NCBI RefSeq assembly: GCF_044324785.1
Contig: NZ_CP172127.1
Length of the DNA stretch: 64,000 nt
Source of the DNA: Escherichia coli
GTDB taxonomy: Bacteria; Pseudomonadota; Gammaproteobacteria; Enterobacterales; Enterobacteriaceae
Direction: 5' to 3' (one strand)
In this document: positions 50,787 through 57,208 of the stretch, piece after piece
Numbering within the stretch: the stretch's first letter is position 1
How the letters are laid out: every line of letters begins with the position of its first letter
The notes under the pieces: model-generated
Seen by the model: only the letters and a program-made list of their open reading frames with translations
What the model was told of the DNA's origin: nothing
Database searches by the model: none
Translations under genes and position numbers: made by a program

Positions 50787-50915
50787 TTTTATGCTCTTAT
50801 CGTAGTTTATCCACTAAAAGCATAGTCAACAGTTCATCGGCATGGCGGCGGTGATAGCGCCTTTGAGATAAAACCCGTATTATTGCGCGCTTTCCGTACG
50901 ACTAAAGTGATTTTC

Positions 50916-52676
50916 ATGACGCAAACATTTATCCCCGGCAAAGATGCCGCTCTGGAAGATTCCATCGCTCGCTTCCAGCAAAAACTTTCAGACCTCGGTT
51001 TTCAGATTGAAGAGGCCTCCTGGCTGAATCCCGTGCCTAACGTCTGGTCTGTACATATTCGCGACAAAGAGTGCGCACTGTGTTTTACCAACGGTAAAGG
51101 CGCAACCAAGAAAGCGGCGCTGGCTTCTGCACTCGGTGAATATTTCGAGCGTCTCTCAACCAACTACTTTTTTGCTGATTTCTGGCTGGGCGAAACCATC
51201 GCCAACGGTCCATTTGTGCATTATCCCAACGAAAAATGGTTCCCACTGACCGAAAATGACGATGTGCCAGAAGGGCTGCTCGATGACCGTCTGCGCGCAT
51301 TTTACGATCCGGAGAATGAATTGACCGGCAGTATGCTGATTGACCTGCAATCTGGTAACGAAGATCGTGGTATTTGCGGCCTGCCGTTTACGCGTCAGTC
51401 CGACAATCAGATCGTTTATATTCCGATGAATATCATTGGTAACCTGTACGTTTCTAACGGTATGTCCGCTGGCAATACCCGCAACGAAGCACGCGTTCAG
51501 GGGTTGTCCGAAGTTTTCGAACGCTACGTGAAAAACCGCATTATTGCTGAAAGCATCAGCTTGCCGGAAATCCCGGCAGACGTGCTGGCGCGTTACCCAG
51601 CGGTGGTTGAAGCCATCGAAACGCTGGAAGCAGAAGGTTTCCCAATCTTTGCTTATGATGGTTCGCTTGGCGGCCAGTATCCGGTGATTTGCGTGGTACT
51701 GTTCAATCCTGCTAACGGTACCTGCTTTGCCTCTTTCGGTGCGCATCCTGATTTTGGCGTAGCACTGGAACGTACCGTGACCGAGCTGCTGCAAGGTCGT
51801 GGCCTGAAAGATTTGGATGTGTTTACTCCGCCAACCTTCGATGATGAAGAAGTTGCTGAACATACCAACCTCGAAACGCACTTTATCGATTCCAGCGGTT
51901 TAATCTCCTGGGACCTGTTCAAGCAGGATGCCGATTATCCGTTTGTGGACTGGAATTTCTCCGGCACTACGGAAGAAGAGTTTGCTACGCTGATGGCTAT
52001 CTTCAACAAAGAAGATAAAGAAGTTTATATTGCCGATTACGAGCATCTGGGCGTTTATGCTTGCCGTATTATTGTGCCTGGCATGTCCGATATTTATCCG
52101 GCTGAAGATCTGTGGCTGGCGAATAACAGTATGGGCAGCCATTTACGTGAAACGATTCTTTCGTTACCAGGCAGCGAGTGGGAAAAAGAAGATTACCTGA
52201 ACCTTATCGAGCAACTGGATGAAGAAGGTTTTGATGACTTTACTCGCGTGCGTGAGCTGTTGGGTCTGGCGACCGGGTCGGATAACGGTTGGTACACCCT
52301 GCGTATCGGAGAATTAAAAGCCATGCTGGCGCTGGCTGGTGGCGATCTGGAACAGGCTCTGGTCTGGACCGAATGGACGATGGAGTTTAACTCATCAGTA
52401 TTTAGTCCGGAACGCGCCAACTATTATCGCTGCCTGCAAACGTTGTTATTACTGGCGCAGGAAGAAGATCGCCAGCCGCTGCAATATCTGAATGCGTTTG
52501 TTCGCATGTACGGCGCAGATGCCGTGGAAGCCGCCAGTGCGGCAATGAGCGGCGAAGCGGCGTTTTATGGCTTGCAACCAGTAGATAGCGATCTGCACGC
52601 GTTTGCTGCACATCAGTCGTTGTTGAAGGCCTACGAAAAGCTGCAGCGCGCCAAAGCAGCATTCTGGGCAAAATAA
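50916..52676 (+). CDS. ycaO: YcaO-domain protein (ribosomal protein S12 methylthiolation accessory factor)
   Basis: 586 aa from the ATG at 50916 (MTQTFIPGKDAALEDS); YcaO superfamily namesake; ORF-track start over-extended. Confidence 0.9.
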   Translation: MTQTFIPGKDAALEDSIARFQQKLSDLGFQIEEASWLNPVPNVWSVHIRDKECALCFTNGKGATKKAALASALGEYFERLSTNYFFADFWLGETIANGPFVHYPNEKWFPLTENDDVPEGLLDDRLRAFYDPENELTGSMLIDLQSGNEDRGICGLPFTRQSDNQIVYIPMNIIGNLYVSNGMSAGNTRNEARVQGLSEVFERYVKNRIIAESISLPEIPADVLARYPAVVEAIETLEAEGFPIFAYDGSLGGQYPVICVVLFNPANGTCFASFGAHPDFGVALERTVTELLQGRGLKDLDVFTPPTFDDEEVAEHTNLETHFIDSSGLISWDLFKQDADYPFVDWNFSGTTEEEFATLMAIFNKEDKEVYIADYEHLGVYACRIIVPGMSDIYPAEDLWLANNSMGSHLRETILSLPGSEWEKEDYLNLIEQLDEEGFDDFTRVRELLGLATGSDNGWYTLRIGELKAMLALAGGDLEQALVWTEWTMEFNSSVFSPERANYYRCLQTLLLLAQEEDRQPLQYLNAFVRMYGADAVEAASAAMSGEAAFYGLQPVDSDLHAFAAHQSLLKAYEKLQRAKAAFWAK

Positions 52677-53081
52677 AATCAAATAGCCTACGCAATGTAG
52701 GCTTAATGATTCGTCTGAGTTATATTACGGGGCGTTTTTTTAATGCCCCGCTTTACATATATTTGCATTAATAAAATAATTGTAATTATAAAGTTAAATA
52801 TCGGTAATTTGTATTTAATAAATACGATCGATATTGTTACTTTATTCGCCTGGTGCTCCCTTTTAATTAACTGTTTTAGCGGAGGATGCGGAAAAAATTC
52901 AACTCATTTGTTAATTTTTAAAATTTATTTTTATTTGGATAATCAAATATTTACTCCGTATTTGCATAAAAACCATGCGAGTTACGGGCCTATAAGCCAG
53001 GCGAGATATGATCTATATCAATTTCTCATCTATAATGCTTTGTTAGTATCTCGTCGCCGACTTAATAAAGAGAGAGTTAGT
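52677..53081 (+). promoter_or_regulatory. AT-rich focA-pflB regulatory/leader region
   Basis: About 400 bp of very AT-rich DNA upstream of focA; in E. coli this region carries the multiple FNR/ArcA/IHF-controlled pfl promoters; individual sites not mapped here. Confidence 0.5.
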
Positions 53082-53939
53082 GTGAAAGCTGACAACCCTT
53101 TTGATCTTTTACTTCCTGCAGCAATGGCCAAAGTGGCCGAAGAGGCAGGTGTCTATAAAGCAACGAAACATCCGCTTAAGACTTTCTATCTGGCGATTAC
53201 CGCCGGTGTTTTCATCTCAATCGCATTCGTCTTCTATATCACAGCAACCACTGGCACAGGAACAATGCCCTTCGGCATGGCAAAACTGGTTGGCGGCATT
53301 TGCTTCTCTCTGGGGCTGATTCTTTGTGTTGTCTGCGGAGCCGATCTCTTTACTTCCACAGTGTTGATTGTTGTTGCTAAGGCGAGTGGGCGCATCACCT
53401 GGGGTCAGTTGGCGAAAAACTGGCTAAATGTCTATTTTGGCAACCTGGTCGGCGCACTGCTGTTTGTACTTTTAATGTGGCTTTCCGGCGAGTATATGAC
53501 CGCGAATGGTCAATGGGGACTAAACGTTCTACAAACCGCCGACCACAAAGTGCACCATACTTTTATTGAGGCCGTCTGTCTTGGTATCCTGGCAAACCTG
53601 ATGGTATGTCTGGCAGTATGGATGAGTTATTCTGGCCGCAGCCTGATGGATAAAGCGTTCATTATGGTGCTGCCGGTCGCGATGTTTGTTGCCAGCGGTT
53701 TTGAGCACAGTATCGCAAACATGTTTATGATCCCGATGGGTATTGTAATCCGCGACTTCGCATCTCCGGAATTCTGGACCGCTGTCGGTTCTGCACCGGA
53801 AAATTTTTCTCACCTGACCGTGATGAACTTCATCACTGATAACCTGATTCCGGTTACGATCGGTAATATTATCGGCGGTGGTTTGTTGGTTGGGTTGACA
53901 TACTGGGTCATTTACCTGCGTGAAAACGATCACCATTAA
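53082..53939 (+). CDS. focA: formate channel FocA (GTG start)
   Basis: 285 aa from the GTG at 53082 (VKADNPFDLLLPAAMAKV...); the ORF-track 398-aa ORF is an in-frame upstream extension through the AT-rich leader. Confidence 0.9.
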   Translation: MKADNPFDLLLPAAMAKVAEEAGVYKATKHPLKTFYLAITAGVFISIAFVFYITATTGTGTMPFGMAKLVGGICFSLGLILCVVCGADLFTSTVLIVVAKASGRITWGQLAKNWLNVYFGNLVGALLFVLLMWLSGEYMTANGQWGLNVLQTADHKVHHTFIEAVCLGILANLMVCLAVWMSYSGRSLMDKAFIMVLPVAMFVASGFEHSIANMFMIPMGIVIRDFASPEFWTAVGSAPENFSHLTVMNFITDNLIPVTIGNIIGGGLLVGLTYWVIYLRENDHH

Positions 53940-53993
53940 TGGTTGTCGAAGTACGCAGTAAATAAAAAATCCACTTAAGAAGGTAGGTGTTAC

Positions 53994-56276
53994 ATGTCCG
54001 AGCTTAATGAAAAGTTAGCCACAGCCTGGGAAGGTTTTACCAAAGGTGACTGGCAGAATGAAGTAAACGTCCGTGACTTCATTCAGAAAAACTACACTCC
54101 GTACGAGGGTGACGAGTCCTTCCTGGCTGGCGCTACTGAAGCGACCACCACCCTGTGGGACAAAGTAATGGAAGGCGTTAAACTGGAAAACCGCACTCAC
54201 GCGCCAGTTGACTTTGACACCGCTGTTGCTTCCACCATCACCTCTCACGACGCTGGCTACATCAACAAAGCGTTGGAAAAAGTTGTTGGTCTGCAGACTG
54301 AAGCTCCGCTGAAACGTGCTCTTATCCCGTTCGGTGGTATCAAAATGATCGAAGGTTCCTGCAAAGCGTACAACCGCGAACTGGACCCGATGATCAAAAA
54401 AATCTTCACTGAATACCGTAAAACTCACAACCAGGGCGTGTTCGACGTTTACACTCCGGACATCCTGCGTTGCCGTAAATCCGGTGTTCTGACCGGTCTG
54501 CCAGATGCTTATGGCCGTGGTCGTATCATCGGTGACTACCGTCGCGTTGCGCTGTACGGTATCGACTACCTGATGAAAGACAAACTTGCACAGTTCACCT
54601 CTCTGCAGGCTGATCTGGAAAACGGCGTAAACCTGGAACAGACTATCCGTCTGCGCGAAGAAATCGCTGAACAGCACCGCGCTCTGGGTCAGATGAAAGA
54701 AATGGCTGCGAAATACGGCTACGACATCTCTGGTCCGGCTACCAACGCTCAGGAAGCTATCCAGTGGACTTACTTCGGCTACCTGGCTGCTGTTAAGTCT
54801 CAGAACGGTGCTGCAATGTCCTTCGGTCGTACCTCCACCTTCCTGGATGTGTACATCGAACGTGACCTGAAAGCTGGCAAGATCACCGAACAAGAAGCGC
54901 AGGAAATGGTTGACCACCTGGTCATGAAACTGCGTATGGTTCGCTTCCTGCGTACTCCGGAATACGATGAACTGTTCTCTGGCGACCCGATCTGGGCAAC
55001 CGAATCTATCGGTGGTATGGGCCTCGACGGTCGTACCCTGGTTACCAAAAACAGCTTCCGTTTCCTGAACACCCTGTACACCATGGGTCCGTCTCCGGAA
55101 CCGAACATGACCATTCTGTGGTCTGAAAAACTGCCGCTGAACTTCAAGAAATTCGCCGCTAAAGTGTCCATCGACACCTCTTCTCTGCAGTATGAGAACG
55201 ATGACCTGATGCGTCCGGACTTCAACAACGATGACTACGCTATCGCTTGCTGCGTAAGCCCGATGATCGTTGGTAAACAAATGCAGTTCTTCGGTGCGCG
55301 TGCAAACCTGGCGAAAACCATGCTGTACGCAATCAACGGTGGCGTTGACGAAAAACTGAAAATGCAGGTTGGTCCGAAGTCTGAACCGATCAAAGGCGAT
55401 CTCCTGAACTACGATGAAGTGATGGAGCGCATGGATCACTTCATGGACTGGCTGGCTAAACAGTACATCACTGCACTGAACATCATCCACTACATGCACG
55501 ACAAGTACAGCTACGAAGCCTCTCTGATGGCGCTGCACGACCGTGACGTTATCCGCACCATGGCGTGTGGTATCGCTGGTCTGTCCGTTGCTGCTGACTC
55601 CCTGTCTGCAATCAAATATGCGAAAGTTAAACCGATTCGTGACGAAGACGGTCTGGCTATCGACTTCGAAATCGAAGGCGAATACCCGCAGTTTGGTAAC
55701 AACGATCCGCGTGTAGATGACCTGGCTGTTGACCTGGTAGAACGTTTCATGAAGAAAATTCAGAAACTGCACACCTACCGTGACGCAATCCCGACTCAGT
55801 CTGTTCTGACCATCACTTCTAACGTTGTGTATGGTAAGAAAACTGGTAACACCCCAGACGGTCGTCGTGCTGGCGCGCCGTTCGGACCGGGTGCTAACCC
55901 GATGCACGGTCGTGACCAGAAAGGTGCTGTAGCGTCTCTGACTTCCGTTGCTAAACTGCCGTTTGCTTACGCTAAAGATGGTATCTCCTACACCTTCTCT
56001 ATCGTTCCGAACGCACTGGGTAAAGACGACGAAGTTCGTAAGACCAACCTGGCAGGTCTGATGGATGGTTACTTCCACCACGAAGCATCCATCGAAGGTG
56101 GTCAGCACCTGAACGTTAACGTGATGAACCGTGAAATGCTGCTCGACGCGATGGAAAACCCGGAAAAATATCCGCAGCTGACCATCCGTGTATCTGGCTA
56201 CGCAGTACGTTTCAACTCGCTGACTAAAGAACAGCAGCAGGACGTTATTACTCGTACCTTCACTCAATCTATGTAA
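53994..56276 (+). CDS. pflB: pyruvate formate-lyase (formate C-acetyltransferase)
   Basis: 760 aa with C-terminal glycyl-radical motif (RVSGYAVRF). Confidence 0.97.
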
Positions 56277-56345: not shown

Positions 56346-56467
56346 GCACGAGAGCCTTTTTTGTCAGCTATCTATACTTTAATGTGACTGCCAAAACAGA
56401 CTCGACGTAGCCTTCGAGCTGCGCACCAACACGGCCTCAGATGGGCCACATCTGGAGAAACACCGCA

Positions 56468-57208
56468 ATGTCAGTTATTGGTCGCATTCACTCCTTTGAA
56501 TCCTGTGGAACCGTAGACGGCCCGGGTATTCGCTTTATCACCTTTTTCCAGGGCTGCCTGATGCGCTGCCTGTATTGTCATAACCGCGACACCTGGGATA
56601 CGCATGGCGGTAAAGAAGTTACCGTTGAAGATTTAATGAAGGAAGTGGTGACCTATCGCCACTTTATGAACGCTTCCGGCGGCGGCGTTACCGCATCCGG
56701 TGGTGAAGCAATCCTGCAAGCCGAGTTCGTTCGCGACTGGTTCCGCGCCTGCAAAAAAGAAGGCATTCATACCTGTCTGGACACTAACGGTTTTGTTCGT
56801 CGTTACGATCCAGTAATTGATGAACTTCTGGAAGTGACCGACCTGGTAATGCTCGATCTCAAACAGATGAACGACGAAATCCACCAGAATCTGGTAGGCG
56901 TTTCCAACCATCGTACACTCGAGTTTGCTAAATATCTGGCGAACAAAAATGTGAAAGTCTGGATACGTTATGTCGTAGTACCTGGCTGGTCTGACGATGA
57001 CGATTCAGCTCATCGCCTCGGTGAATTTACTCGCGATATGGGTAACGTCGAAAAAATCGAGCTCCTCCCCTACCATGAGTTAGGCAAACATAAGTGGGTG
57101 GCGATGGGCGAAGAGTACAAACTCGACGGTGTGAAACCACCGAAAAAAGAAACCATGGAGCGAGTGAAAGGGATTCTTGAGCAATATGGTCATAAAGTGA
57201 TGTTCTAA
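56468..57208 (+). CDS. pflA: pyruvate formate-lyase activating enzyme (radical SAM)
   Basis: 246 aa from the ATG at 56468 ([23 protein letters not shown]) with the CxxxCxxC radical-SAM cluster motif ([10 protein letters not shown]). Confidence 0.95.

Follow-up and report, generated by a model that had tools for sequence, protein, structure and literature searches.

The question raised by this locus is where translation of focA begins. In the window, a 64,000-nt stretch of Escherichia coli DNA, a mechanically called open reading frame (ORF) on the plus strand (52743–53939) starts with ATG and encodes 398 residues. It consists of 113 in-frame spacer codons followed by focA. Codon 114 is a GTG (53082–53084), which is followed by KADNPFDLL. 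Read from this GTG, the focA coding sequence (plus strand, 53082–53939, 858 nt) encodes 285 residues plus a stop. The spacer and focA features described below lie on the same strand unless stated otherwise. The gene order at 50.9–57.2 kb of the window is the ycaO-focA-pflB-pflA order of E. coli. Specifically, ycaO ends at 52676, while pflB (53994–56276) and pflA (ending at 57208) are located directly 3′ of focA, in an order identical to that in RefSeq. The original prediction regarded the 398-residue ORF as a false N-terminal extension of FocA, running through an AT-rich region of about 400 bp. The ORF, the GTG, the KADNPFDLL sequence and the purine-rich stretch that it described are all in place, and the ycaO-focA spacer (52677–53081) is indeed 405 bp long and AT-rich, with a GC content of 31.1% vs 50.7% for the window and 48.4% for focA.

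Translation of focA almost certainly starts at GTG 53082–53084, with the 113 preceding codons being non-coding and open by chance in this lineage. The position of the start, the non-coding upstream stretch and the polymorphism described below are demonstrated by the present analysis; the use of GUG, the binding of 30S subunits and the effects of Shine-Dalgarno (SD) mutations are taken from the literature, and the identities of the promoters are those that we infer. The biology is confirmatory. That focA starts with GUG was already established, and the present result adds no discovery; its weak ribosome-binding site and the several promoters of the pfl control region are likewise textbook knowledge, and the reference annotation is already correct. 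The GUG start was reportedly first demonstrated, by mutagenesis, by Suppmann and Sawers in Mol Microbiol in 1994.

RefSeq annotation, FocA profiles, FocA structures and comparative data all place the start at 53082, which bears out the prediction of a false extension. In a genome that is 100% identical to the window over 52600–53400, RefSeq/PGAP calls a focA of 858 nt from the base matching 53082, and focA of K-12 (b0904, RefSeq) is likewise 858 nt long and begins at the equivalent base. The NCBIfam FocA equivalog NF008069 (285 positions) aligns with its profile positions 1–285 on ORF residues 114–398, with a score of 631.9 bits (cutoff 440). TIGR04060 scores 425.3 bits on FocA, against a cutoff of 290.1 bits. 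The match to the formate/nitrite transporter family PF01226 (262 bits) begins at residue 128 of the long ORF. Residues 1–113 of the long ORF match no NCBIfam or Pfam model.

The structures give the same boundary. Residues 1–285 of the PDB chains 3kcu (E. coli) and 3q7k (Salmonella) align with ORF residues 114–398, and the alignment of the Vibrio cholerae chain 3kly to the long ORF starts from chain residue 3. Over residues 1–285, the encoded FocA does not differ from the 3kcu chain, and the pore residues T91 and H209 are in place when numbering starts from the GTG. With a full-length equivalog match, both pore residues and the adjacent pflB-pflA, the product is the FocA formate channel. K-12 focA (b0904, FOCA_ECOLI, 3KCU), the first gene of the focA-pflB operon, has the same 285-residue protein, the same GTG and the same gene order, but differs from the window in having an in-frame TGA at 52851–52853, so that K-12 has no 398-residue ORF. 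A published focA deletion primer stops exactly 5′ of the GTG (PMC2636881). In a 30S-seq preprint, focA is handled as a GUG-started gene and gives an initiator-tRNA-dependent toeprint at its start (bioRxiv 10.1101/2025.04.04.647229).

For the comparison across Enterobacteriaceae, one genome per species was scanned. Of the 80 loci obtained, 79 could be used to compare the start site, and 77 spacers entered the conservation profile. The GTG start is present in 79 of 79 species, and AGAGAGAGTTAGTGTGAAAGCTGACAACCCT is invariant too. Each of the 78 other species has an in-frame stop 4–86 codons 5′ of the GTG. In the Mangrovibacter, Kluyvera, Klebsiella/Raoultella and Phytobacter loci, this stop lies only 4, 5 or 12 codons upstream. 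Because there is no ATG, GTG or TTG between the stop and the GTG, the GTG is the sole canonical start in those loci.

The upstream stretch does not evolve as coding sequence. The spacers are 382–407 bp long across species, and 212 of the 214 indels in pairwise upstream alignments with the window are not multiples of three; the net length differences spread evenly over the residues modulo 3. Mismatch frequencies at codon positions 1/2/3 are 0.078/0.029/0.408 for the whole focA coding sequence and 0.036/0.008/0.236 for focA codons 2–15, vs 0.267/0.287/0.287 for the 113 upstream codons. It is thus at the GTG that the coding signature sets in, neither at the ATG of Met15 (53124) nor upstream. In codon usage, the upstream stretch scores −0.12 bits per codon, compared with +0.25 in focA and +0.47 at the end of ycaO; the GC content at codon positions 1/2/3 is 0.30/0.31/0.29 in this stretch vs 0.52/0.39/0.54 in focA. 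Conservation of the upstream 113 codons in orthologs, which the original prediction had named as the result that would speak against it, decisively failed to appear, with stops in the 78 other species, flat substitutions and frame-breaking indels. On these results, the stretch lacks both the conservation and the coding signature of a genuine N-terminally extended isoform.

A separate feature of the profile of 77 spacers is a 72-nt block (53030–53101), from a −10 hexamer through codon 6 of focA, which is invariant or nearly invariant. Third positions of focA codons 2–6 never vary, vs 41% differing third positions over the whole gene. Such extreme invariance of 53030–53101 is a residual oddity of the locus.

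Why, then, is the frame open in this strain? The spacer differs from that of K-12 at 3 of 408 positions, and one of them is 52853, which is G in the window and A in K-12. This G turns the TGA at 52851–52853, present in K-12 and most E. coli, into TGG and thereby extends the open upstream run from 76 to 121 codons, giving the 398-residue ORF. Of 5426 complete E. coli genomes, 3522 carry a 33-mer containing the TGA and 502 carry its TGG version. Another E. coli representative has just 48 open codons upstream. In the window, 52743–53081 contains 23 stop triplets, none of them in frame 0, and an open run of 113 codons arises in only 5 of 20,000 shuffles of the spacer. The long ORF thus exists only because the lineage has TGG for TGA and no other stop falls in frame. 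We read the long open run as a chance outlier of this lineage, noticed for its length and without any conserved property.

Selection for an open frame was considered and rejected. Outside the conserved proximal 120 nt, stops across species are even over the three frames (393/442/441 triplets in the non-conserved distal 219 nt). As an observation in its own right, an open frame of 121 codons in DNA of 31% GC is improbable a priori, and counts as a point against a non-coding reading.

The 398-residue form has entered the databases. It is deposited in GenBank (BAX16513.1, BAX21455.1, BBJ09540.1 and BBQ39470.1) and in UniRef (A0A2X8MI82_ECOLX), and is present on at least 1000 contigs. RefSeq/PGAP does not call it, TGG genomes included. 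The deposited form is a propagated mis-annotation. It resembles the common gene-calling artefact of longest-ORF N-terminal over-extension, in which an upstream in-frame ATG is likewise preferred over a GTG with a weak SD. Unlike the usual case, its 113 codons are unusually long for AT-rich DNA and hinge on one polymorphic base. Through this single base, longest-ORF callers add 113 spurious residues in about 1 of 11 E. coli genomes, and the 398-residue form is even the representative of a 90% cluster in a large protein collection. [quoted passage not shown]

The GTG is preceded by a weak purine-rich SD region, AAAGAGAGAG (53067–53076), with three overlapping GAG triplets 5 nt before the GTG. 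Within it, AGAGAGAG (53069–53076) is invariant in the 79 species, while the two As in front of it vary in a few. The region around 53082 is predicted to be unstructured (z = +1.12) and is invariant. Expression of a focA-lacZ fusion is wholly lost on mutation of this start-proximal SD (bioRxiv 10.1101/2025.04.04.647229). Initiation at the GTG relies on the weak GAGAGAG SD 5 nt upstream, in this unstructured and extremely conserved region.

Scoring of the ribosome-binding sites before 53082 and 52743, which had been proposed as a way to decide, brought no separation: the best anti-SD duplex is −4.9 kcal/mol before 53082 vs −5.5 kcal/mol before 52743, where it involves a G-run. The duplex energy slightly favours 52743 and in itself is a point against the GTG reading. 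In place of SD energy, the starts were told apart by how well they are conserved, by the predicted RNA structure and by the position of the mapped transcription start.

The true start is overlapped by an out-of-frame GTG-TGA mini-frame (GTGTGA, 53080–53085), which is invariant in the 79 species and is known for K-12 from a preprint supplement (bioRxiv 10.1101/2025.04.04.647229). The window has at 53080–53084 the same GTGTG as the overlapping GUGUG/AUGUG starts described in E. coli (Nucleic Acids Res 2022, PMC9841429), and that study counts focA as one of the gtGTG starts that lack an SD of at least 4 nt. Unlike other GUGUG/AUGUG genes, the out-of-frame GTG of focA meets TGA at once, so no peptide beyond the initiator residue can result.

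The upstream ATG (52743–52745) sits in a very different context. It is paired in the 3′ arm of a GC-rich 9-bp hairpin 3′ of ycaO (52728–52750), of which the G-run forms the other arm. This hairpin is the last of three after ycaO. RNA folding places the two others at the ycaO 3′ end at 52685–52703 and 52706–52723, and the fold of 52677–52765 contains all three hairpins at −30.1 kcal/mol (z = −5.14). The terminator scan, too, picked up the hairpin at 52685–52703, there on the minus strand. Across species, the ATG at 52743 is less than 10% conserved.

A conserved −10-like hexamer, TATATT (52721–52726), precedes position 52734, which corresponds to K-12 position 954814. The latter is described as the ‘most 5′-distal known TSS’ of focA, with a 348-nt 5′ UTR (30S-seq table, bioRxiv 10.1101/2025.04.04.647229). 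The block TATATTACGGGGC (52721–52733) is more than 90% conserved in the 77 spacers. TATATT and the distal start probably represent pfl promoter 7. Because transcription from 52734 removes the G-run, the distal transcript has no SD for the ATG at 52743, which is only 9 nt from its 5′ end. The original prediction called the whole region a leader. The label holds for the distal transcript, with its 348-nt 5′ UTR, but does not hold for the rest, which is promoter/operator DNA.

The distal 5′ UTR contains a far-upstream SD-like GGAGG (‘uSD’, 52881–52885) at −201. In K-12, an upstream 30S-binding site (uRBS) of focA that begins at −213 and contains a strong SD has been reported on the evidence of 30S-seq, toeprinting and lacZ fusions, and mutation of the uSD causes an approximately 10-fold loss of focA expression (bioRxiv 10.1101/2025.04.04.647229). 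The window is identical to K-12 over this site. The GGAGG region is predicted to be unstructured (z = +1.36), and the non-conserved ATG that adjoins the motif at 52886 is in another frame and leaves no spacing. On sequence grounds, the locus would therefore be classed among uRBS mRNAs, since it has a far SD-like motif in a transcribed 5′ UTR and no usable start. Such sites occur in long 5′ UTRs and are akin to ribosome standby sites, and the window has GGAGG at −201 as in K-12 (bioRxiv 10.1101/2025.04.04.647229). A 5-nt SD at −199 to −205 is found in 35 of the 77 spacers and is absent from the Klebsiella, Raoultella, Kluyvera and Mangrovibacter loci; the motif is thus conserved only in part.

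Ribosomes in the far 5′ UTR could instead be taken to mean that the ATG at 52743 opens a regulatory upstream ORF (uORF), 36 codons long in K-12 and fused to focA in the window, which modulates focA. K-12 does have the ATG, the 36 codons and the TGA at 52851–52853, and ribosome signal is present in the far 5′ UTR (70S 3.04 vs total 8.3, compared with 28 vs 1272 in the ORF; 30S-seq table, bioRxiv 10.1101/2025.04.04.647229). However, beyond Escherichia both the ATG and the frame lack conservation. In the preprint, the far-UTR signal is explained by 30S subunits that bind, independently of tRNAi, at GGAGG, about 140 nt 3′ of the ATG, and the GGAGG site is stated to have no functional start codon (bioRxiv 10.1101/2025.04.04.647229). 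We consider the uORF very unlikely. The presence of some 70S signal over the far 5′ UTR, relative to the low RNA level, is a residual oddity and a point against the GTG reading.

In a combined version, a few distal transcripts of the approximately 9% of E. coli with TGG would give a 398-residue FocA, while TGA strains would translate the 36-codon uORF. This has a very slim chance of being correct. If true, a long FocA or uORF could explain the 70S signal in the far 5′ UTR together with lineage differences in focA translation.

Extremely unlikely is the reading in which, on some distal transcripts of TGG strains, the ATG at 52743 serves as the start of a lineage-specific FocA isoform of 398 residues, with a hydrophobic extension of 113 residues. 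The frame is open and begins with ATG, the distal transcript includes this ATG 9 nt after its first base, the protein is deposited in GenBank and UniRef, and some 70S signal covers the far 5′ UTR in K-12. Against this, the extension shows no conservation, codon periodicity or domain match and has a negative codon score, and its ATG is absent from other genera. In read-through RNA, this ATG is base-paired within a hairpin, and in the distal transcript it has no SD. TGG is the minority allele, and PGAP omits the long form even in TGG genomes.

[quoted passage not shown]

Translation from GTG 53082–53084 thus yields the 285-residue formate channel FocA, and the 339 bases added upstream in the long ORF belong to the non-coding ycaO-focA spacer. 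Within this spacer lie the hairpins at the 3′ end of ycaO and the putative upstream pfl promoters, with an FNR box and an IHF-like site. The spacer also supplies the 5′ UTR of the distal transcript, whose GGAGG is reported to hold 30S subunits and to raise focA translation.

The original prediction took the region before focA to be the multi-promoter pfl control region, and the spacer does hold this region, with −10 elements, an FNR box and a site resembling the IHF consensus. Specifically, AATCAAATATTTA (52941–52953) is a perfect match to the IHF consensus and the sole match to WATCAANNNNTTR in the spacer. Its ATCAA core is conserved in the 77 spacers, and we regard 52941–52953 as a putative IHF site. 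The FNR box ATGATCTATATCAA (53008–53021) has one mismatch to TTGATNNNNATCAA and is nearly invariant in the 77 spacers. Downstream of it are two invariant −10-like hexamers, TATAAT (53031–53036) and TAGTAT (53044–53049). TAGTAT would place transcription initiation close to 53056, at 41.5 bp from the centre of the FNR box, which is class II geometry; FNR is reported to activate focA-pflB from a site at −40.5 (PMC3688515). The FNR-dependent proximal promoter should thus produce a leader of about 26 nt. From the class II geometry and the earlier literature, the two hexamers may correspond to promoters P6 and P6A.

Other searches of the region were less productive. A second FNR box, for the distal promoter, was not found at up to 2 mismatches. 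A sigma-70 scan site at 52752–52780 was given no role; it is poorly conserved and is the only promoter-like site of the scan, fewer than in shuffles. An Rfam search of 52500–54100 returned only a chance match (E = 0.55) and no family. The AT-rich blocks at 52862–52871 and 52898–52935 are presumably candidates for ArcA-type sites. Control of the focA-pflB operon by FNR, ArcA, IHF and NarL is stated in the literature. Insertions of IS elements in the ycaO-focA spacer raise anaerobic focA expression and were selected in the mouse gut (PMC5094792), effects that fit a regulatory, non-coding spacer.

The 72-nt segment at positions 53030–53101, which runs from the −10 hexamers to codon 6 of focA, is invariant or nearly so among the 77 Enterobacteriaceae ycaO-focA spacers compared. 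The invariant block includes the third positions of focA codons 2–6, in a gene with a gene-wide third-position difference of 41%. The retention of these third positions in the aligned sequences suggests a constraint on the DNA or RNA itself, in addition to that on the protein. Such a constraint could come from the promoter, from the initiation region, or from an unknown binding partner.

Farther upstream, an out-of-frame ATG directly abuts a GGAGG with zero spacing (GGAGGATG, 52881–52888). This ATG is not conserved in the 77 related spacers. A 5-nt Shine-Dalgarno (SD) sequence occurs at the position of the GGAGG in only 35 of the 77 species, and none is present in the Klebsiella, Raoultella, Kluyvera, and Mangrovibacter loci of this set. 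In K-12, the far 5’ UTR of focA (52734–53061) has a 70S value of 3.04 versus a total RNA value of 8.3, and the focA ORF has a 70S value of 28 versus a total RNA value of 1272 (supplement of bioRxiv 10.1101/2025.04.04.647229). Thus, with the UTR taken as a whole and the published table values used in unconfirmed units, the far 5’ UTR is not depleted of 70S per unit RNA.

Three hairpins are arranged in series downstream of the ycaO stop codon (52685–52750; z = −5.14), none of which has a clear T-tract on the plus strand. The −10 element and the transcription start of the distal focA promoter are located between and within these hairpins. Thus, ycaO termination overlaps with focA distal initiation.

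The extended 398-aa FocA (P0002; 52743–53939) is deposited in GenBank as BAX16513.1, BAX21455.1, BBJ09540.1, and BBQ39470.1, and in UniRef as A0A2X8MI82_ECOLX. It is present in at least 1000 contigs, and the 90% cluster to which the true 285-aa FocA belongs has a 398-aa sequence as its representative. In the same operon neighbourhood, the mechanical ORF call for pflA (56441–57208, 255 aa, ATG at 56441) is likewise over-extended. In K-12, pflA is 741 nt long, which corresponds to an annotated start at the second ATG (56468, MSVIGRIH...), nine codons 3’ of 56441. The mechanical ORF for ycaO (50883–52676, 597 aa) begins at TTG 50883, and the RefSeq gene (1761 nt, 586 aa) begins at ATG 50916.

Three loci from the cross-species scan, L052 (labelled Chryseobacterium sp. 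18061) and L037 and L069 (from “Proteobacteria bacterium” MAGs), encode an enterobacterial FocA with 91–93% identity, and their spacer and focA start are the same as the enterobacterial ones. The Chryseobacterium label of L052 is therefore doubtful, and judged by these sequence features the assembly looks mislabelled or contaminated.
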